Origin: a virus
Taxonomy: Duplodnaviria; Heunggongvirae; Uroviricota; Caudoviricetes
Direction: 5' to 3' (one strand)
IMG/VR virus record: IMGVR_UViG_2874956758_000003
DNA length: 33,231 nucleotides
A model generated the notes under the pieces. It made no database searches and was not told where the DNA came from. It saw nothing but the letters and a program-made list of their open reading frames with translations. Positions 11,264 to 22,053 of this stretch are shown here, one piece after another. Positions within the stretch are counted from its first letter, which is position 1. Every line of letters begins with the position of its first letter. Both the position numbers and the translations under genes were made by a program.

Positions 11264-11365
11264 GGGACACAGCCTAGACTGGCCCCCTGAATCTCCAGAC
11301 AACCAGTATCACTTAAATAAGTGATAGTCTTAATACTAGTTTTTAGACTAGTCATTGGAGAACAG

Positions 11366-11731
11366 ATGATTGATGTCTTAGGGCCGGAGAAACGCAGACG
11401 GCGTACCACACAGGAAAAGATCGCAATTGTTCAGCAGAGCTTTGAACCGGGGATGACGGTCTCCCTCGTTGCCCGGCAACATGGTGTAGCAGCCAGCCAG
11501 TTATTTCTCTGGCGTAAGCAATACCAGGAAGGAAGTCTTACTGCTGTGGCCGCCGGAGAACAGGTTGTTCCTGCCTCTCAACTTGCTGCCGCCATGAAGC
11601 AGATTAAAGAACTCCAGCGCCTGCTCGGCAAGAAAACGATGGAAAATGAACTCCTCAAAGAAGCCGTTGAATATGGACGGGCAAAAAAGTGGATAGCGCA
11701 CGCGCCCTTATTGCCCGGGGATGGGGAGTAA
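11366..11731 (+). CDS. insC: IS2 OrfA (InsC)
   Basis: 121 codons from [47 protein letters not shown] (HTH). Confidence 0.85.
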
Positions 11732-12594
11732 GCTTAGTCAGCCGTTGTCTCCGGGTGTCGCGTGCGCAGTTGCACGTCATTCTCAGACGAACCGATGACT
11801 GGATGGATGGCCGCCGCAGTCGTCACACTGATGATACGGATGTGCTTCTCCGTATACACCATGTTATCGGGGAGCTGCCCACGTATGGTTATCGTCGGGT
11901 ATGGGCGCTGCTTCGCAGACAGGCAGAACTTGATGGTATGCCTGCGATCAATGCCAAACGTGTTTACCGGATCATGCGCCAGAATGCGCTGTTGCTTGAG
12001 CGAAAACCTGCTGTACCGCCATCGAAACGGGCACATACAGGCAGAGTGGCCGTGAAAGAAAGCAATCAGCGATGGTGCTCTGACGGGTTCGAGTTCTGCT
12101 GTGATAACGGAGAGAGACTGCGTGTCACGTTCGCGCTGGACTGCTGTGATCGTGAGGCACTGCACTGGGCGGTGACTACCGGCGGCTTCAACAGTGAAAC
12201 AGTACAGGACGTCATGCTGGGAGCGGTGGAACGCCGCTTCGGCAACGATCTTCCGTCGTCTCCAGTGGAGTGGCTGACGGATAATGGTTCATGCTACCGG
12301 GCTAATGAAACACGCCAGTTCGCCCGGATGTTGGGACTTGAACCGAAGAACACGGCGGTGCGGAGTCCGGAGAGTAACGGAATAGCAGAGAGCTTCGTGA
12401 AAACGATAAAGCGTGACTACATCAGTATCATGCCCAAACCAGACGGGTTAACGGCAGCAAAGAACCTTGCAGAGGCGTTCGAGCATTATAACGAATGGCA
12501 TCCGCATAGTGCGCTGGGTTATCGCTCGCCACGGGAATATCTGCGGCAGCGGGCTTGTAATGGGTTAAGTGATAACAGATGTCTGGAAATATAG
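11689..12594 (+). CDS. insD: IS2 OrfB transposase (InsD)
   Basis: 301-aa ORF with GTG start, overlapping insC by 43 bp; IS3-family DDE motif region ...[11 protein letters not shown]... Confidence 0.9.
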
Positions 12595-12605
12595 GGGCAA
12601 ATCCA

Positions 12606-12634
12606 GGGTGTTGCATTGACAGATTGAATCTACA
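12606..12634 (+). mobile_element. IS30 right-end remnant (29 bp)
   Basis: GGGTGTTGCATTGACAGATTGAATCTACA is identical to the last 29 bp of the IS30 copies at 4256-4284 (reverse) and 29078-29106. Confidence 0.75.
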
Positions 12635-13573
12635 ACAGCGTATTTTGCCCAGGAGTCGCTGAAAAATACGCGTTAGTCGAACAATGGCGACAACAATTCC
12701 CTGTTGAAGCGATGTGTCAGGTATTTGGTGTATCCAGGAGCGGTTATTACAACTGGGTACAGCATGAACCCTCAGACAGAAAACAAAGTGATGAGCGGCT
12801 AAAACTGGAGATTAAGGTGGCACATATCCGCACTCGCGAAACATATGGAACCCGGCGGCTCCAGACGGAGCTGGCAGAGAATGGCATCATCGTTGGTCGT
12901 GACCGACTGGCACGTCTTCGTAAGGAGCTGAGGCTGCACTGTAAGCAGAAACGCAAATTCAGGGCGACCACAAACTCAGACCACAATCTGCCGGTTACGC
13001 CGAATCTGCTGAATCAGAACTTTACGCCCACAGCACCTAATCAGGTCTGGGTCGCAGATATAACGTATGTTGCCACCCGGGAAGGATGGCTGTATCTCGC
13101 CGGCGTCAAAGATGTTTATACGTGCGAAATTGTCGGCTACGCCATGGGAGAGCGCATGACAAAAGAGCTGACAGGTAAAGCCCTGTTTATGGCGCTCAGG
13201 AGCCAGCGCCCACCTGCCGGGCTAATCCACCACACCGTTCGAGGTTCACAGTACTGCGCATACGATTACCGGGTCATACAGGAGCAGTCTGGTCTGAAAA
13301 CATCAATGTCGCGTAAAGGTAACTGTTACGACAACGCTCCGATGGAAAGCTTCTGGGGAACGCTGAAAAATGAGAGCCTGAGCCACTATCGTTTTAATAA
13401 CCGGGATGAAGCCATCTCAGTAATACGGGAATACATTGAGATTTTCTACAATCGTCAGCGTCGTCACTCTCGTCTGGGGAATATCTCCCCGGCAGCCTTC
13501 AGGGAAAAATATCATCAGATGGCTGCTTAAAAAAAGAACAAATGGTAGTGTCCGCTATTGCCAGTACACCTCA
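12635..13573 (+). mobile_element. IS600, 3' portion only (orfA C-terminus + orfB), copy 2
   Basis: Begins at the same IS30/IS600 junction (ACAGCGTATTTTGC...) as the other two copies; ends with the IS600 right terminus ...CCAGTACACCTCA. Confidence 0.8.
12712..13530 (+). CDS. IS600 OrfB transposase, variant with HTVRG in place of HSDRG
   Basis: 272-aa ORF identical to copy 1 except for the DDE-motif segment (HSDRGSQY -> HTVRGSQY). Confidence 0.8.
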   Translation: MCQVFGVSRSGYYNWVQHEPSDRKQSDERLKLEIKVAHIRTRETYGTRRLQTELAENGIIVGRDRLARLRKELRLHCKQKRKFRATTNSDHNLPVTPNLLNQNFTPTAPNQVWVADITYVATREGWLYLAGVKDVYTCEIVGYAMGERMTKELTGKALFMALRSQRPPAGLIHHTVRGSQYCAYDYRVIQEQSGLKTSMSRKGNCYDNAPMESFWGTLKNESLSHYRFNNRDEAISVIREYIEIFYNRQRRHSRLGNISPAAFREKYHQMAA

Positions 13574-14074: not shown

Positions 14075-14749
14075 CTACAGCGCCCACGAATCGCGGAGGA
14101 GATAAATCTTCTCGTCGCGCTCTTTGTGGTCCTGTCGGTATTTGTAGCCCGGACGCCGCCAGTTCGAATGCCAGCGCAGAGCAATCGCACCACTCTGAAC
14201 AGCCAGCAGATATTTAACGTTGCTCGCCAGCTTATGTCCCTGGTCAATAGCCACCCGGCGACTGATAAAATCCATATCCTTCACGGACTTCTGAAAACCG
14301 GACTTCACTTCCCGGCGATCTATTTCGCTCACCCCGTCAGGTGGAATGGACGTAACCCACCCCTGAAAACGCTGTATGGTTTTCTCGATGGCCTGTTCGC
14401 GGTTGAGTTTTATCAGGTTGGCACTGGCGAAAATTCGCCTGTCGAGTTCCTTGCGAAACTCAGGTTTCAGTTTTTCAACAGTGATTTTTTTAGGGCCGTC
14501 AGGAGGCTGATCCCGTAATGCCCCGCCGTCGATGACAAGACGGCTGTAGATAGCGGTGAGATATTTTCTGGCTACGGTATCATCAGGGGTTTCTCGCTGA
14601 GCGGCTACACGGAGTTTCCGGCACCATTCGAGCAATGATTTTTCGCTATCCCACCCGTGATTTACGTAGTAGTTAACGGCATCCGTCAGAACCTCATACA
14701 GCGTCCTGATCCGTTTCTTCTTCCTCCCCGCCCGGCTGGAAATTGCCAT
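14075..14749 (-). CDS. phage head-morphogenesis-like protein (function uncertain)
   Basis: 224 codons from ATG 14749 preceded by AGGAG; overlaps the portal 3' end by 56 bp. Positioned directly after the portal, as minor head / morphogenesis genes are in many tailed phages. Confidence 0.35.
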   Translation of the reverse strand: MAISSRAGRKKKRIRTLYEVLTDAVNYYVNHGWDSEKSLLEWCRKLRVAAQRETPDDTVARKYLTAIYSRLVIDGGALRDQPPDGPKKITVEKLKPEFRKELDRRIFASANLIKLNREQAIEKTIQRFQGWVTSIPPDGVSEIDRREVKSGFQKSVKDMDFISRRVAIDQGHKLASNVKYLLAVQSGAIALRWHSNWRRPGYKYRQDHKERDEKIYLLRDSWAL

Positions 14750-16130
14750 CAGGCGTCTCCTGCTTCGGTGGTTCATAATTCGCCAGCGCGTCCACATCAA
14801 TGATGAGTGGAGCTTCGCCATAGGTCTGCGTGGCATTAACAAGGCTTGCCAGCCATTCAGTGACGGCGGCACGGTTTTCAGGATCAACCTGTGGCGACAC
14901 GGCAGAGAAAAGTGCTATCGCCTGTTGAATCACTTTACTGTCGCTTTCCCGGCGTTTGTCCGGCGACTCCTCCACCAGCTCCTGCCACGTCGCGGTAAAT
15001 TCACGTCGCCACTGATAAAACGTGGTTTTATAGTCCTCGGTTATGATGTCCGGGTAATCATTTTTCAGCGACTGATAAAATTCCTCGTTCCAGGCGATGT
15101 ACTGCACCAGGCGTTCGAAATAATCCATCACAGGTTCAATCTGCTGGCGTACACCATCGATATACTGGCTGATGGCTTTCGAGTCCTCCTTACCTTCACC
15201 GAATCCGTTACTGAATGCTTCTTCCTTGATAATAATGGCCGGAACGTCACTCCCGGCGGCAATATCAGCAATGATATTGTCGCGGGCAGTATTCAGCGCC
15301 CCGTCGATGTTTTGCAGGTTCAGTGAACTTACGTCTTCGTCTTTTCCAATACTCAACACGCCTTTATTTTTGGCGGCTTTCACGTTTTCCCTTTTACGCC
15401 CCGTGGCAGCAGCCATGATCCCGTCAATTTTCGAACCATTCTGCACAACTTTAGCCACCAGTACGCCTGCCTTCTGGCTGACGAGATCATTCGCCTCCAT
15501 CGTATTGATATAGGATGTCAGGGAATAAAGAACTCGCTGAAACACGCTTCGCCCGGTGAATCCGAACGATGAACTCTGAAACTCCAGATAAATCGGTGTA
15601 CCGTTGAAAATTTTCAACGTACGTGACGGATGCCAGTCTTTTCCGCCAATCTTCAGCTTTTTATTGGCTTCCTGGAAAAACGGACTATTTGGGTTCTGGT
15701 CAGTCACCATCGAACCGGAAGCGTTCAACGGATCCCACGCGTTGATATACACGTCATCTTCTGTCAGTCCGAACGTCGGAAGCGGTTCACGACATGGAAC
15801 GCTGTCGGTGCCCACGCCGATCGCTGCGGCACCGTAGCAACGAGACAGAAAAAACAGATTTTTAATCTTCTCGTTGACCTTCATGCGTTCCCATACCTCC
15901 TGAAAACGCCTCACAACCCTCTCGTCAGGGTCTGTCTCCACGTTATACTGTCGCGGCTTACACATCGCCATCAGTATGGGTTTTTCGACAAGTTTTCCGC
16001 CCAGAGGATGGAATTGCCACAGCTGCTTACACAATTCATAGCCAATGTCGGTTCCCGGCTGAATTTCTTCAGCCTCAAGAATATGCATCAGTGCTGAACC
16101 GAGGCCGCCAGTAATCTCGATCTCTGCCAT
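14694..16130 (-). CDS. putative phage portal protein
   Basis: 478 codons from ATG 16130 (AGGAT RBS); acidic C-terminal tail (GGEEEETDQDAV). Gene order TerS-TerL-this ORF. Assigned by position and size, not by a recognised motif. Confidence 0.5.
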   Translation of the reverse strand: MAEIEITGGLGSALMHILEAEEIQPGTDIGYELCKQLWQFHPLGGKLVEKPILMAMCKPRQYNVETDPDERVVRRFQEVWERMKVNEKIKNLFFLSRCYGAAAIGVGTDSVPCREPLPTFGLTEDDVYINAWDPLNASGSMVTDQNPNSPFFQEANKKLKIGGKDWHPSRTLKIFNGTPIYLEFQSSSFGFTGRSVFQRVLYSLTSYINTMEANDLVSQKAGVLVAKVVQNGSKIDGIMAAATGRKRENVKAAKNKGVLSIGKDEDVSSLNLQNIDGALNTARDNIIADIAAGSDVPAIIIKEEAFSNGFGEGKEDSKAISQYIDGVRQQIEPVMDYFERLVQYIAWNEEFYQSLKNDYPDIITEDYKTTFYQWRREFTATWQELVEESPDKRRESDSKVIQQAIALFSAVSPQVDPENRAAVTEWLASLVNATQTYGEAPLIIDVDALANYEPPKQETPDGNFQPGGEEEETDQDAV

Positions 16131-16148
16131 CAAAAATATCCTGATTTT

Positions 16149-17477
16149 TTACAACGCCGCGTAATTACCGTGCGCGATGATCAACCCATAGGTGTAACAA
16201 TCGAAAAGGTCATCAGCACGTTTATGCGCGTCTTTGTCTGCCAGGTGGAACCCGGCGATTTGTTTTATGAGGTGGTTTGCAGTGGTGCGTTTGAATGAAA
16301 CGGTCTTGTCGTAAGCCTCCCGGACGATTTTGCACATCCCCTGATAGTGGTAGCTGGATGCCATCACCGCCCGTTCGTCTTTGCCCTTGCTGGTTAGTGC
16401 CGATTTAATCGGCGTCATATCCCAGCCTTCGGTTTCCGCCTTCTGGTTGAGGATTGCCCCCATCGCAGCGTCTTCCATAAAAATTCCCTGGCTGCCCAGA
16501 CGCGGACGGCATAATTTCACGAGGCGCTCAAGGTTGTCATAAACGCCGGGGATATATTCAGGAAGCAATGACGCTTTAATTTGCGTCACATCCCAGTCAA
16601 TAATCGTCAGTTTTGGCTCTTCCGAATACGTTGACTCATAAGCGAAATACAACACGCCAGTACCATCATTTTCGGTCCCGCCTTTCAGCGCCGTATCCAT
16701 CACTGCGAAAATCATGTCGCAGTACGGCGGCATCTCAATCGGCTGACCGTCCACCAGCAGCTTATCGACATCGAGTAACGCGTCTTTGGACCAGTCCACG
16801 AACTCGGCAAGATATTCCTGCTGCCAGACGCGCGGATCGGATTTCTTCTCCGTTTCCTCCAGTTCTTCTTTCGGAATATACGGATTCGATGAAGTTGGCG
16901 CATGGTGCATGACAAATCCCAGGGATTCATCGTGGCATATCGCGTAGAAAAAATTGCTCTCGTCGATACCGTTTGGTGTGGAAAATACCCACGCACAGCC
17001 GCGGTAATCGACAAGCGTCGGGCGTATAGCTCGGGGCCAGATTTCCTCGAGCATTTCCGGCGATTTAGTGAATGCTGCCTCATCAATCAGCACAGCGTGA
17101 TATTTACGCCCACGCCCGGCCAGTTTGTTATTGTCCGTTACCCAAAAGTCGATGCGCCCCCCATTACGGAGAATAATGCGCTTTTCATTTTTTGACTGGC
17201 TGAGGATCAGCGGTTGCAGAACGGCGCTAATTTCATCCCAGATTTCCTGGTACTGGCGGTATTGTGCGGTAAAAATCCCCACCCTACCCGCGATAAGTTG
17301 CCCGGTGGTAGGAACGGCAAATTTCCGCGTAGCGAAACTGGTAGCGATGTTTACCAGCATCACCGTTTTACCCCAGCGACGACCACAGCATACCGCGTGG
17401 AAGCGTTCCTCTATTGCCGCCGTCCATGCAGCTATTTGCCCCTCATGAAGTTTTGGGAGGTAGATTTCAATCGACAT
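16149..17477 (-). CDS. phage terminase large subunit
   Basis: 442 aa; Walker A CGRRWGKT near the N-terminus, Walker B-like HAVLIDEAAF, C-terminal nuclease-type acidic residues; overlaps TerS by 11 bp. Confidence 0.85.
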   Translation of the reverse strand: MSIEIYLPKLHEGQIAAWTAAIEERFHAVCCGRRWGKTVMLVNIATSFATRKFAVPTTGQLIAGRVGIFTAQYRQYQEIWDEISAVLQPLILSQSKNEKRIILRNGGRIDFWVTDNNKLAGRGRKYHAVLIDEAAFTKSPEMLEEIWPRAIRPTLVDYRGCAWVFSTPNGIDESNFFYAICHDESLGFVMHHAPTSSNPYIPKEELEETEKKSDPRVWQQEYLAEFVDWSKDALLDVDKLLVDGQPIEMPPYCDMIFAVMDTALKGGTENDGTGVLYFAYESTYSEEPKLTIIDWDVTQIKASLLPEYIPGVYDNLERLVKLCRPRLGSQGIFMEDAAMGAILNQKAETEGWDMTPIKSALTSKGKDERAVMASSYHYQGMCKIVREAYDKTVSFKRTTANHLIKQIAGFHLADKDAHKRADDLFDCYTYGLIIAHGNYAAL

Positions 17478-18222
17478 TATCCACTCCCGGCATCGGCAGA
17501 GAGTTGTGGATAATTATTTCGTTATTCTCACCACCCACGCCTTTTTTGAGGTTTTCAATCTCAGTGCGCAGCTTTTCGTTGCGAAGCCTCAGTCCTTCAA
17601 GCTCCAGATCATTGCGACTGTCAGTTGCACCACCAGCTGAACTTCCTTTCGTCGCCATTATCAGCTTGATAAGTTCGCGCCGGGCGGCAGCCTTATCCTC
17701 CAGCAGGATCTCAACACCAAATTTCCCGAGCTTTGCCCCTGCATATAATTGTCGCGCATCCCCATCAAGCAGAGTGGTATCAGCCATATAAAGCTGTCCC
17801 GTTCCCTCACCGCAGCACTTCGGACAATCCGGATTGGGTATGGCGTTATCAACAAAGCCGAGGCCTCCATATTCCGGCTCGGGTTTGCCATCTCTGGAGG
17901 CCTGTGCCGCTGCCTTATCGAATTCTGCAATATCACGCCACTGGTAGAGATGATTCTCGCCCCAGCAATAACGGCAGTTAACACGGCGAAATTGTGCCAA
18001 CTGATTGGGGTCGGCCTGGACAATAGCCATCAACTGACTCACCAGTAAATCCAGGTCTGCGGTATAGCGTTTCTGATACTGATTGCGGAAGTAGCTGATA
18101 GCACGATAAACCCTGGCATTTCTAAGCATACGGCTGGCGTTGCTGTTAGCTGTCGCACCTTGCCCCTCATAACCAGCCAGTCGGTATGCCTCTGTCGGCT
18201 TTTTCCCCTGAGCAACAAGCAT
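17467..18222 (-). CDS. phage terminase small subunit (possibly the C-terminal part of a frameshifted gene)
   Basis: N-terminus MLVAQGKKPTEAYRLAGYEGQGATANSNASRMLRNARVYRAI resembles the terminase small-subunit DNA-binding motif; immediately upstream of TerL. Confidence 0.55.
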   Translation of the reverse strand: MLVAQGKKPTEAYRLAGYEGQGATANSNASRMLRNARVYRAISYFRNQYQKRYTADLDLLVSQLMAIVQADPNQLAQFRRVNCRYCWGENHLYQWRDIAEFDKAAAQASRDGKPEPEYGGLGFVDNAIPNPDCPKCCGEGTGQLYMADTTLLDGDARQLYAGAKLGKFGVEILLEDKAAARRELIKLIMATKGSSAGGATDSRNDLELEGLRLRNEKLRTEIENLKKGVGGENNEIIIHNSLPMPGVDNVD

Positions 18223-18296
18223 CGCAAACTTAGCCTGCTGGTCAGAAATGCCGAATTCATCGGGGCAGAACGAAAATTCCTCCGCGTCGCCCTCAT

Positions 18297-18557
18297 TCAG
18301 GCACGCATCGGATACTGGCTTTTTTTCTGAGATTTTCCGTTCCGCTTTTGCGCAGTCTGCGCAGATTTTTTCTGCGCACTTTGTTGCGCAGTTTTACGCA
18401 TTTCTGTCTGCGCATTTTTCGGAGGTTTTTTGATGTAACGACGGGCTGTTGCGTAATTCAGTCCCCTTGCTTCACACCATGCCACCGGAGATATACCGGA
18501 GCGGGTGTATTCAGCAATATACTCCTGCTGCAACGCCCCCCAGTCCGGTCTGCTCAT
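18297..18557 (-). CDS. small HTH protein, possible detached N-terminal part of the terminase small subunit
   Basis: MSRPDWGALQQEYIAEYTRSGISPVAWCEARGLNYATARRYIKK (HTH-like) followed by a Lys/Gln/Ala-rich low-complexity tail encoded by the TGCGCA repeat region. Different frame from 17467-18222. Confidence 0.35.
   Translation of the reverse strand: MSRPDWGALQQEYIAEYTRSGISPVAWCEARGLNYATARRYIKKPPKNAQTEMRKTAQQSAQKKSAQTAQKRNGKSQKKSQYPMRA
18349..18414. repeat. periodic palindromic hexamer TGCGCA repeats (5 copies + 1 degenerate in 66 bp)
   Basis: TGCGCA at 18349, 18358, 18373, 18385 and 18409, with ACGCA at 18396; spacing 9-15 bp; each preceded by a T-rich run. Confidence 0.6.
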
Positions 18558-18719
18558 CAGTTAGTCCTGATTTTTATCCACCCTGAGTAGTTCGCACAGA
18601 GCAAAGGCATCCCCTTTTCTGGCAAGCTTAAACAATGCCGCTCGTAACTTGGCTTCACCTTTCGCTCCGCCCTTACGGATGGGCGCATAAAATCTCGCTC
18701 ATACAGCCTTGCTTTATGA

Positions 18720-18839: not shown

Positions 18840-20297
18840 TTAGGAGCGCCCAAAAAAACCTGAAAACAATATAATAACAGGATAAATTTCAAGGCGACCA
18901 AGAATCATAGCTATGCACATTAAATATTTTGCAATGTCATTAAGCACTCCGAATGACGATGCAGTAGCCCCAAAACCTAATCCCATATTATTAATACATG
19001 CAGCCACTGTTGCAAATGATGTAAGAAAATCATATCCCATACCATTTAACACCAGTATAAAAAACACCGTGAAGAGAGTATAAAGAAAAAAGAAACTCCA
19101 TACAGACCTCATGACACGATCTGTAACTATCTTCCCTCCTACATTTACACTCAACAACGCTCTGGGATGAGAAAGCTGGTTTATCTCGTGTTTGCTTTGT
19201 TTGAAAAGTATAAGAAATCGAAGTGACTTAATTCCACCACAAGTTGAACCTACACATCCCCCAAAGAAACTTGACAACAGCAAAAACACTATCGTGTGCG
19301 TGGGCCAGTTTGCATAATCCTGCGTAGCTAAACCATTATCAGTGAGCATGGAGCTGGCAAGAAAAAACGAATGAATAAAACTTCCAGGCAAGTCATACAT
19401 ACCTATATGCCAGACCTGGAAAGAGGTAACAATGATCACCCCTAAGGCTATTAACAGAAAGAAACGAAGTTCAATATCTCTGATTAAAGGTTTTATCGTT
19501 TTCCTGCTAATAACAATATACCAAAGGGTGAAATTGAAAGCCGATAGCAGGGAAAAAGAACCAGCCACCAGCTCAACCAAATAGTTATTAAAATATCCGA
19601 TACTCTCGCTATGAGTTGAGAAACCACCAAGCGAAACTGTGGATATCCCGTGACAAATAGCATCAAACAAAGGCATTCCTGCAAGTCTATAACAGACAAT
19701 ACAAGCAATACCTAATAAAGAATAAGTTATCCAAAGTGTCCGTGACGTATCGGCCAAGCGGGGAGTAAGTTTGTCATCCTTAAATGGCCCCGGCATTTCT
19801 GACTGATAAAGCTTTGCACCACCAATACCCAATAATGGCAATACAGCAACCGCCAGAACAATAACTCCTAAACCACCTATAAAATTTAACTGTGACCGAT
19901 AGTACAAATATGCCCGAGGTAATGAACTAACATCATCAATTACAGTTGCTCCTGTTGTTGTTATTCCAGAAACCCCTTCAAATAGAGCATCGATAAACGT
20001 TAAATTAAGTTCTGAGTCAATCCATAAAGGGAATGCACTAATAACAGAAAACAAAATCCAAAACATTACAATTATAATAAACCCATCACGGGTACGTAAT
20101 TGAATACCAGATTTCTTAGTTGTATACCACGCTCCGCCACCAATGCCAAAAAATATAACGAAAGTTATAAAGAAAACGAACAGGCTTTTTTCTTTATAAA
20201 ACAATGCTACAACCATTGGTGGCAACATTGAAAGACTATAGAGCCAAACCAGGAACCCACACATATGAGTAACAACTCTTACATGAGATGTATTCAT
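18840..20297 (-). CDS. trkG: TrkG/TrkH-family potassium uptake membrane protein (prophage moron)
   Basis: 485 codons from MNTSHVRVVTHMCGFLVWLYSLSMLPPMVVALFYKE (track ORF starts 6 codons earlier); multi-pass membrane protein with GxG-type pore loops; markedly AT-rich compared with the flanking phage genes. In E. coli K-12 trkG sits in the Rac prophage. Confidence 0.85.
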   Translation of the reverse strand: MNTSHVRVVTHMCGFLVWLYSLSMLPPMVVALFYKEKSLFVFFITFVIFFGIGGGAWYTTKKSGIQLRTRDGFIIIVMFWILFSVISAFPLWIDSELNLTFIDALFEGVSGITTTGATVIDDVSSLPRAYLYYRSQLNFIGGLGVIVLAVAVLPLLGIGGAKLYQSEMPGPFKDDKLTPRLADTSRTLWITYSLLGIACIVCYRLAGMPLFDAICHGISTVSLGGFSTHSESIGYFNNYLVELVAGSFSLLSAFNFTLWYIVISRKTIKPLIRDIELRFFLLIALGVIIVTSFQVWHIGMYDLPGSFIHSFFLASSMLTDNGLATQDYANWPTHTIVFLLLSSFFGGCVGSTCGGIKSLRFLILFKQSKHEINQLSHPRALLSVNVGGKIVTDRVMRSVWSFFFLYTLFTVFFILVLNGMGYDFLTSFATVAACINNMGLGFGATASSFGVLNDIAKYLMCIAMILGRLEIYPVIILFSGFFGRS

Positions 20298-20434
20298 ATC
20301 TAAATATTCTTTCAATTATAACCACCTTGCTGCAACATTATGATTATACTGTATAAAATTTAACTCCTCTAAGATCTTACTTCACTGTTCCTTATGAAAC
20401 AATCATCAAAATGAATCATATTGTAGTTAAGATT

Positions 20435-20722
20435 TTACTTTAAACACTGTTCGGTTATGTATTGCTGAGCACCTTCAAGTTGGGCCTGCATCATTACCAG
20501 TCGTTCCCGGAGGGTGAAATAATCCCGTTCAGCGGTGTCTGCCAATCTGGGGGAGACTGCATTATCCACGCTGGAGGCGATGGTGGCTTCACGCACGGAC
20601 AGACAGACTGCTTTGATGTGCAACCGACGACGACCAGCGGCAACATCATCACGTAGAGCATCATTTTCAGCTTTCGCATCAGCTAACTCCTTCAGGTATT
20701 TTGCATCGAGTGCAGCAACATC
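20435..20722 (-). pseudogene. Rz (i-spanin) C-terminal fragment, separated from its N-terminus by IS2
   Basis: ...LDVAALDAKYLKELADAKAENDALRDDVAAGRRRLHIKAVC...AERDYFTLRERLVMMQAQLEGAQQYITEQC matches lambda Rz C-terminal half (from memory); the reading frame runs into the IS2 left end. Confidence 0.8.
20494..20679 (-). CDS. Rz1 (o-spanin lipoprotein), intact, embedded in the Rz frame
   Basis: 61-aa ORF MRKLKMMLYVMMLPLVVVGCTSKQ... with lipobox LVVVGC and Pro-rich body, closely matching lambda Rz1. Confidence 0.75.
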   Translation of the reverse strand: MRKLKMMLYVMMLPLVVVGCTSKQSVCPCVKPPSPPAWIMQSPPDWQTPLNGIISPSGNDW

Positions 20723-20813
20723 TAGACTGGCCCCCTGAATCTCCAGACAACCAGTATCACTTAAATAAGTGATAGTCTTAATACTAGTTTTTAGACTAGT
20801 CATTGGAGAACAG

Positions 20814-21179
20814 ATGATTGATGTCTTAGGGCCGGAGAAACGCAGACGGCGTACCACACAGGAAAAGATCGCAATTGTTCAGCAGAGCTTTGAACCGGGG
20901 ATGACGGTCTCCCTCGTTGCCCGGCAACATGGTGTAGCAGCCAGCCAGTTATTTCTCTGGCGTAAGCAATACCAGGAAGGAAGTCTTACTGCTGTGGCCG
21001 CCGGAGAACAGGTTGTTCCTGCCTCTCAACTTGCTGCCGCCATGAAGCAGATTAAAGAACTCCAGCGCCTGCTCGGCAAGAAAACGATGGAAAATGAACT
21101 CCTCAAAGAAGCCGTTGAATATGGACGGGCAAAAAAGTGGATAGCGCACGCGCCCTTATTGCCCGGGGATGGGGAGTAA
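20814..21179 (+). CDS. insC: IS2 OrfA (InsC)
   Basis: Identical to copy 1 InsC. Confidence 0.85.
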
Positions 21180-22042
21180 GCTTAGTCAGCCGTTGTCTCC
21201 GGGTGTCGCGTGCGCAGTTGCACGTCATTCTCAGACGAACCGATGACTGGATGGATGGCCGCCGCAGTCGTCACACTGATGATACGGATGTGCTTCTCCG
21301 TATACACCATGTTATCGGAGAGCTGCCCACGTATGGTTATCGTCGGGTATGGGCGCTGCTTCGCAGACAGGCAGAACTTGATGGTATGCCTGCGATCAAT
21401 GCCAAACGTGTTTACCGGATCATGCGCCAGAATGCGCTGTTGCTTGAGCGAAAACCTGCTGTACCGCCATCGAAACGGGCACATACAGGCAGAGTGGCCG
21501 TGAAAGAAAGCAATCAGCGATGGTGCTCTGACGGGTTCGAGTTCTGCTGTGATAACGGAGAGAGACTGCGTGTCACGTTCGCGCTGGACTGCTGTGATCG
21601 TGAGGCACTGCACTGGGCGGTGACTACCGGCGGCTTCAACAGTGAAACAGTACAGGACGTCATGCTGGGAGCGGTGGAACGCCGCTTCGGCAACGATCTT
21701 CCGTCGTCTCCAGTGGAGTGGCTGACGGATAATGGTTCATGCTACCGGGCTAATGAAACACGCCAGTTCGCCCGGATGTTGGGACTTGAACCGAAGAACA
21801 CGGCGGTGCGGAGTCCGGAGAGTAACGGAATAGCAGAGAGCTTCGTGAAAACGATAAAGCGTGACTACATCAGTATCATGCCCAAACCAGACGGGTTAAC
21901 GGCAGCAAAGAACCTTGCAGAGGCGTTCGAGCATTATAACGAATGGCATCCGCATAGTGCGCTGGGTTATCGCTCGCCACGGGAATATCTGCGGCAGCGG
22001 GCTTGTAATGGGTTAAGTGATAACAGATGTCTGGAAATATAG
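21137..22042 (+). CDS. insD: IS2 OrfB transposase (InsD)
   Basis: Identical 301-aa product to copy 1. Confidence 0.9.
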
Positions 22043-22053
22043 GGGCAAATCCA

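Follow-up and report, generated by a model that had tools for sequence, protein, structure and literature searches.

Does a cluster of short palindromes inside a small terminase subunit gene mark the place where packaging of a phage genome begins? The question is raised by a 33,231-bp stretch of viral DNA (the window), in which repeated TGCGCA hexamers had been noticed from the letters alone at the start of the packaging module. They lie in a small helix-turn-helix (HTH) ORF, and a TerS-like body follows in another frame, for which that sequence-only reading had proposed either a frameshifted terS or two genes flanking a recognition array of the kind from which pac sites are built. Pac sites set which DNA is packaged, including host DNA in generalized and lateral transduction, and to our knowledge they are known in only a handful of phages. 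The features on which the following analysis turns are:

14694..16133, minus strand: portal protein (Phage_portal_3 PF06381, E 9.4e-14)
16149..17477, minus strand: terminase large subunit (TerL), 442 aa (Terminase_6N, E 5e-5)
17467..18319, minus strand: distal terS in the -1 frame, comprising the linker remainder, a Terminase_2 domain that includes a further HTH, a Cys-rich insertion and a C-terminal tail
18320..18326, minus strand: frameshift site, A7 on the coding strand (T7 on the plus strand), where aligned relatives have A8 or GA7
18297..18557, minus strand: 86-aa ORF, a truncated TerS N-terminal fragment consisting of the HTH, linker and seven out-of-frame residues (SQYPMRA)
18426..18557, minus strand: terS codons 1-44, N-terminal three-helix HTH (MSRPDWGALQQEYIAEYTRSGISPVAWCEARGLNYATARRYIKK), supported by AF2, hhalign and conservation in 160 loci
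18426-18455, minus strand: putative recognition helix YATARRYIKK, within the N-terminal HTH domain

A single terS gene broken at a homopolymer

Window positions 17467-18557 (minus strand) are one terS gene of a Rac-like prophage, broken by the loss of one A. Intact homologous prophages, the comparison that the sequence-only reading had called for, do carry a single continuous terS: in close E. coli relatives (98-99% DNA identity) it is 1092/1095 nt long and encodes a TerS of 363/364 residues. The homopolymer reads GA7 in 27, A8 in 11 and A7 in just one of 39 related loci, and 38 of the 39 have a single ORF with A8 or GA7. Diverged homologues are likewise all single ORFs, and the two-frame layout is not kept in homologues. 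The continuous gene in relatives, together with A7 in the window against A8 or GA7 elsewhere, therefore identifies a frameshift and not a two-gene design, as the first of the two earlier alternatives had it.

Owing to the 1-nt deletion, the N-terminal reading frame terminates at 18297-18299. Translation confirms that the TerS-like body and the HTH ORF lie in different frames; the Terminase_2 ORF as listed spans 17467..18222, and the 3' end of distal terS overlaps the start of terL. An intact 363-aa protein, P0121, which represents 170 database sequences, is 100% identical to the downstream frame of the window over the alignment and carries PF03592 (Terminase_2). In the repaired homologue this family matches residues 122-311 (E 7.6e-9, 36.8 bits vs a cut-off of 26.1). 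The gene order terS-terL-portal is present in the window, and the Terminase_2 terS there is not one continuous ORF.

The A7 allele reflects either genuine decay through a recent 1-nt deletion or a sequencing error in the homopolymer. The prophage-trkG junction of the window also occurs in two IMG/VR contigs, L013, where terS is intact, and L033, which is frameshifted and has the A7 allele. Searching databases with the 86-aa ORF yielded nothing but short fragments, most of them frameshifted. Public data contain dozens of different N-terminal TerS fragments, 66-91 aa long and broken at different A-runs of the linker, and some of these come from complete genomes (proteins P0001-P0120). The A-rich linker is a hot spot for frameshift mutation or homopolymer sequencing error, be it biological or technical in origin.

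The hexamer array in the window

18349..18414, no strand: hexamer array, with TGCGCA at 18349, 18358, 18373, 18385 and 18409 and a degenerate copy at 18395-18400

Five exact hexamers and one degenerate copy within 66 bp had been counted earlier, and our counts agree. The array corresponds to gene nt 144-209, within the coding sequence of a K/Q/A-rich linker. The degenerate copy reads TACGCA on the plus strand and TGCGTA on the coding strand, and is an exact TGCGCA in relatives; it encodes M-R-K, and so lies in a different reading frame from the other five, which encode x-A-Q.

TGCGCA is not enriched globally. The window holds 14 copies against 13.9 expected from shuffles, which is the chance level, and five of these 14 fall within 66 bp, so that the hexamer is not similarly frequent elsewhere in the window. 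In 1000 base permutations the maximum was two per 66 bp, and the Poisson bound for five in 66 bp is <3e-6. Synonymous codon resampling of the 86-aa ORF gave a mean of 0.72 copies, five never being reached in 3000 trials. Successive copies are 9, 15, 12, 10 and 14 bp apart. The spacing of about one helical turn described earlier is thus approximated by the mean (12 bp), but with a range of 9-15 bp the copies are out of phase and do not lie on one helix face. The T-runs near the hexamers are the complement of Lys/Gln/Thr codons in the A-rich linker. No second cluster was found in the window when one mismatch was allowed, and a search of the window by eye revealed no IHF consensus.

Architecture of TerS and relationship to P1 PacA

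TerS residues 1-44 form a three-helix domain (AF2 helices 6-20, 24-31 and 35-38; pLDDT 78-88 over residues 1-40), of which the third helix is short in the model. The small HTH ORF had been likened to the DNA-binding N-terminus of a TerS, and it is indeed a truncated N-terminal piece of TerS that includes the putative DNA-binding HTH domain (N-domain). Foldseek comparison of this domain with the PDB gave generic HTH matches only, all with E >1, and a PDB sequence search gave nothing useful. No Pfam family matched the N-domain, and NCBIfam yielded only a sub-threshold match to the IS66 TnpA HTH. Residues 45 to ~100 constitute a K/Q/A-rich basic linker of ~55 residues, predicted to be disordered; in the part covered by the AF2 model (45-86) confidence is low, with a helix at 47-62 at pLDDT ~50-65 and values <50 over 65-86. 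The Terminase_2 body that follows presumably carries oligomerisation. Relatives that differ in terL also differ in the C-terminal tail, as the TerL-binding end should.

Profile comparison shows homology between the N-domain and the N-terminal part of P1 PacA. Alignment with PacA residues 1-67 by hhalign has a probability of 89.8% (E 1.8e-6, 39 columns), the two share the pattern W..F...G.S..W....LN..TARRY[IL], and tblastn with the N-domain finds pacA of phage D6 (E 4e-4). D6 PacA (L170) has a homologous N-domain with the helix NTARKHLNM, and its gene has GGATCA/TGATCC elements at gene nt ~330-470, clustered farther downstream than in P1.

Comparison with known packaging sites

P1 pac is a ~161-bp site inside pacA with seven hexamers that contain Dam-methylated GATC. 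Synonymous recoding of the P1 hexamers lowered the titre ~9-fold (PMC10028697). In the annotated P1 genome, TGATCA/G occurs at pacA nt 194, 201, 213 and 228 and again at 324, 336, 347 and 375 (spans 194-233 and 324-380), in two reading frames encoding x-D-H/Q, and cleavage is annotated at pacA nt 276-285, adjoining an IHF site. The window resembles P1 in three respects. The recognition protein of P1 is a small terminase subunit with a homologous N-terminal HTH; a cluster of palindromic TGnnCA elements lies in the coding sequence just past the HTH domain, in more than one reading frame; and several hexamers fall in the 5' third of terS. In the kind of protein partner, in the nature of the element and in its position, the window array thus corresponds to a mapped pac site. 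There are also differences. The window has a single cluster of six instead of four plus three around an IHF site, its TerS body is of the Terminase_2 type and not PacA-like, and its TerL is unrelated to PacB. Unlike the P1 elements, TGCGCA contains no GATC, and Dam methylation therefore cannot gate the window array. The frameshift itself is ordinary; the part of interest is the array, a probable form of the P1 pac design that uses TGCGCA and does not depend on Dam, and one example of a widespread pairing of HTH and array.

Resemblance to other mapped sites is looser. In Bacillus phage SPP1, G1P binds pacL, pacC and pacR of the pac site, and in lambda, gpNu1 binds the R sites of cosB; both sets are short repeats recognized by a TerS N-terminal HTH. 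As in those phages, where the N-terminal HTH of an oligomeric TerS binds, several short repeats lie in or beside terS. In contrast, there is no sequence relationship, the SPP1 and lambda sites are longer or non-palindromic boxes, and the window TerS has an extra HTH on a long linker besides that of Terminase_2. SF6/SPP1-like TerS is treated in PMC4737164. Pac sites of the P22/Sf6 type lie inside the terS coding sequence (gene 3 / gene 1), as does the window array. P22 pac is, however, a single asymmetric site of ~22 bp and not a hexamer array, and the TerS families are unrelated. P22 pac is discussed in PMC11260489.

Taken with the frame independence, codon bias and helix covariation described below, the PacA homology and the P1-like position give strong comparative support to the earlier suggestion that these hexamers form a pac array recognized by terminase. 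More specifically, the terS array is probably a P1-type pac recognition site bound by the N-terminal HTH of TerS itself, here in a decayed prophage. In the ancestor, the linker DNA carried six TGCGCA, five of which are left in the window, and these are most likely sites for the protein's own N-terminal HTH. The HTHs of a TerS oligomer would be held on flexible linkers, each taking a 6-bp site of low information, and a cluster of five or six such sites would supply avidity and specificity. Terminase would then assemble at the array to start packaging, and TerL would cut nearby.

A literature search produced no relevant paper on TGCGCA with terminase or pac or on related Yersinia phages, and none with binding, cleavage or end mapping for this N-domain TerS family. 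The nearest phages to the window TerL are uncharacterised and it has no similarity to P1 PacB, so this comparison does not reveal the packaging class, headful or cos. For E. coli LF82 phage Gally a pac peak has been mapped in terS, but its TerS is an unrelated 140-aa protein, which precludes comparison.

The array could instead be a DNA site, for TerS or another factor, with a regulatory role such as terS-terL autoregulation. An HTH protein that binds its own gene is a frequent autoregulatory layout, the array falls within the earliest of the late packaging genes, and regulation and pac would look alike in sequence. This alternative is nevertheless unlikely: the protein is a terminase small subunit, with a known role in pac/cos recognition, the homologous P1 array is a packaging site with mapped cleavage, and the array sits 130-210 nt inside the ORF and not at a promoter.

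If a pac function is correct, the P1 pac design is not a peculiarity of P1 but a widespread Enterobacterales prophage module, with one form that is independent of Dam (TGCGCA) and, in Stx phages, another that contains GATC, and with a readable protein-DNA specificity code. Pac sites could then be predicted from sequence. This would guide phagemid and transduction-vector design, as recoding of the P1 hexamers already does, and help to predict which chromosomal regions beside such prophages are mobilised.

DNA-level constraint across homologues

Loci encoding the N-domain (160) were taken from IMG/VR and from one genome per species, and near-duplicates were removed (clusters at ~80% identity) to leave 46 representatives. 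These belong to Escherichia, Klebsiella, Enterobacter, Citrobacter, Pantoea, Serratia, Proteus, Providencia, Morganella and Xenorhabdus. Every representative (46/46) has 3-10 hexamers in gene nt 121-300, just after the 44-aa N-terminal HTH. Hexamer density is 3.9 per 60 bp at gene nt 120-179, compared with ~0.02 in the 1.5-kb flanks on both sides. Two further loci were examined separately from the 46: Aeromonas phage phiARM81mr has seven TGCGCA despite a quite different linker peptide, and a frameshifted Vibrio salinus prophage gene has four copies plus six further downstream.

The hexamer is used in all three reading frames. Among the 46 representatives, 136 copies are read as nnT-GCG-CAn (x-A-Q/H), 37 as nTG-CGC-Ann ([LMV]-R-x) and seven as TGC-GCA (C-A). 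Ala-Gln is written as T-GCG-CA in 127 of 139 cases (91%) in the linker, compared with 25 of 96 (26%) elsewhere in the same genes. The single frame and ordinary codons expected of a repeat kept at the peptide level were thus not found, and the comparison shows that the hexamers are constrained as a DNA element and are not a by-product of a K/A/Q-rich linker.

Relatives of the Klebsiella type and from Vibrio carry a further 3-6 TGCGCA, which form a second cluster ~150-200 nt past the first (gene nt 348-403 in L005, L070-L077, L126, L128 and L135; gene nt 314-430 in L165). It sits in the coding region of the Terminase_2 HTH (IAQAIAQ), and the resulting layout is bipartite, like P1 HEX4/HEX3.

Hexamer type follows the putative recognition helix

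Hexamer and HTH are linked across homologues. A TA-R-RYIKK helix (R-type) is paired with TGCGCA in 116 of 117 distinct loci, the sole exception being a degraded gene, and a TA-K-RYIK[IVAT] helix (K-type) with TGCGAA(T)/(A)TTCGCA in 13 of 13. The K-type array is often a 12-bp palindrome, TGCGAATTCGCA. Over residues 1-35 a K-type and an R-type domain can be identical (L115/L070, L129/L084) or one residue apart (L008/L151), so that the difference between the types is confined to helix 3 and the array. As the helix 3 coding sequence is <30 nt from the array, the covariation could partly reflect, in place of selection, physical linkage of two module lineages inherited as one recombination block.

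Small terminases of Shiga-toxin phages (933W L0112, VT2-Sakai, phi24B and others) have the same N-domain at 53% identity. Their 933W-type array repeats (C/T)GATCAT four times with a period of exactly 12 bp, encoding K-I-D-H-E-I-D-H-K-T-D-H-E-I-D-H, with 1-2 TGCGCA ~60 nt beyond. In 933W (L171, AF125520) the elements span 2130-2185 of the locus, or L0112 gene nt ~130-185; they are also present in L172. The 933W system differs from the window in its helix (NTARTRIKMG), in the GATC-containing hexamer and in a TerS body that has no Pfam match, and its GATC cores recall the Dam-controlled hexamers of P1. No paper on pac mapping for 933W or on its GATCAT array was found in the literature search.

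The helix-hexamer pairs are ARRYIKK with TGCGCA, AKRYIK[IVAT] with TGCGAAT, ARTRIKM with CGATCAT and, in P1, ARRYLRA with TGATCA. P1 PacA also has TARRY and yet uses TGATCA, which means that residue 39 alone does not set specificity. The TerS bodies that carry N-domain and array together are of several unrelated kinds: Terminase_2 (in several lengths), the 933W type, PacA, and others without a Pfam match. This variety suggests that the array is partnered by the N-domain and not by the HTH of Terminase_2. The 44-residue HTH and its array may form a portable packaging-specificity cassette, found on at least four unrelated terminase bodies, in which specificity is switched by 1-2 helix residues and the hexamer; we consider this wider proposal as likely as not. 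If it holds, hundreds of Enterobacterales prophages, Shiga-toxin phages among them, would have pac sites that could be read from sequence and re-programmed.

These comparisons bear on the possibility that the hexamers are a by-product of an (S/T)-A-Q-K linker, amplified by 12-nt slippage and kept for the protein, the DNA motif being without function. In its favour, x-A-Q in a single frame accounts for most copies, the intervals between copies are for the most part multiples of 3, and the linker, rich in K/Q/A, has predicted disorder. Against this, ~25% of copies use one of the remaining two frames, where they read L/M/V-R-x or C-A; A-H is also used, keeping TGCGCA; and T-GCG-CA reaches 91% in the linker as opposed to 26% elsewhere. 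Linker peptides vary widely while the hexamer stays, as in Aeromonas, the hexamer type follows helix 3, and in P1 the homologous site is proven to work at the DNA level. An origin at the peptide level, largely refuted by the frame and codon tests, is very improbable.

RNA folding and the two reading frames

Self-complementary hexamers might also act in RNA or single strands, with hairpins in terS mRNA modulating translation or promoting frameshifting at the downstream A-run to give an HTH-only protein beside full TerS. RNA of 18300-18440 folds better than its shuffles (z -3.35), as do the corresponding Klebsiella (z -3.76) and 933W (z -3.30) regions, an A7/A8 run lies downstream of the array, and N-terminal fragments of 66-91 aa abound in databases. 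The better folding arises because a self-complementary hexamer is repeated; the Yersinia K-type array, made mostly of direct TGCGAAT repeats, has a z of only -0.60. Known stimulators of -1 frameshifting lie downstream of the slippery site, whereas the putative structure here is upstream of the A-run. The truncations are scattered over many A-runs, the pattern expected of mutations or sequencing errors, and programmed frameshifting is not supported because intact relatives read through in one frame. We regard a role in RNA as less probable still than a peptide-level origin.

A true two-gene arrangement, with a small DNA-binding protein ahead of TerS, is the least credible explanation and is rejected: the window does show two ORFs and one IMG/VR contig (L033) has an identical 86-aa ORF, but the Terminase_2 frame, although open upstream to 18393, has no ATG, GTG or TTG before the ATG at 18222, which is codon 113 of the intact protein and lies inside helix 1 of the Terminase_2 HTH, and the single ORF of 38 of the 39 related loci is matched by hundreds of 363-aa proteins.

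Decay of the surrounding prophage

18693..18702, no strand: deletion junction upstream of terS, from comparison with relatives
11274-12606, 20722-22053, 32314-33231: IS3-family element, first type (one copy cut by the window end)
3316-4284, 12606-13573, 29078-30046: IS3-family element, second type

The packaging system of the window is a relic: terS is frameshifted, genes upstream are deleted and the region is rich in IS elements. Its putative packaging site is probably not used now, because terS is broken. In relatives, a 69-aa ORF, a GREB1-like gene and a ParB/Srx (ynaK) gene lie between terS and trkG. Only part of the 69-aa ORF is left in the window (remnant ~18560-18700), and trkG (18840-20315) almost adjoins it. 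The 69-aa ORF (L001 4163-4372) matches PHROG 309, 'terminase small subunit', at positions 157-218 of 319 (E 2e-17), and on this match it could be a piece of a different terS or an accessory protein for packaging. The two IS3-family elements (HTH_Tnp_1 and rve ORFs) are present in six copies, three of each, and a longer inverted pair of 1890 nt is found at 3316-5205 / 28157-30046.
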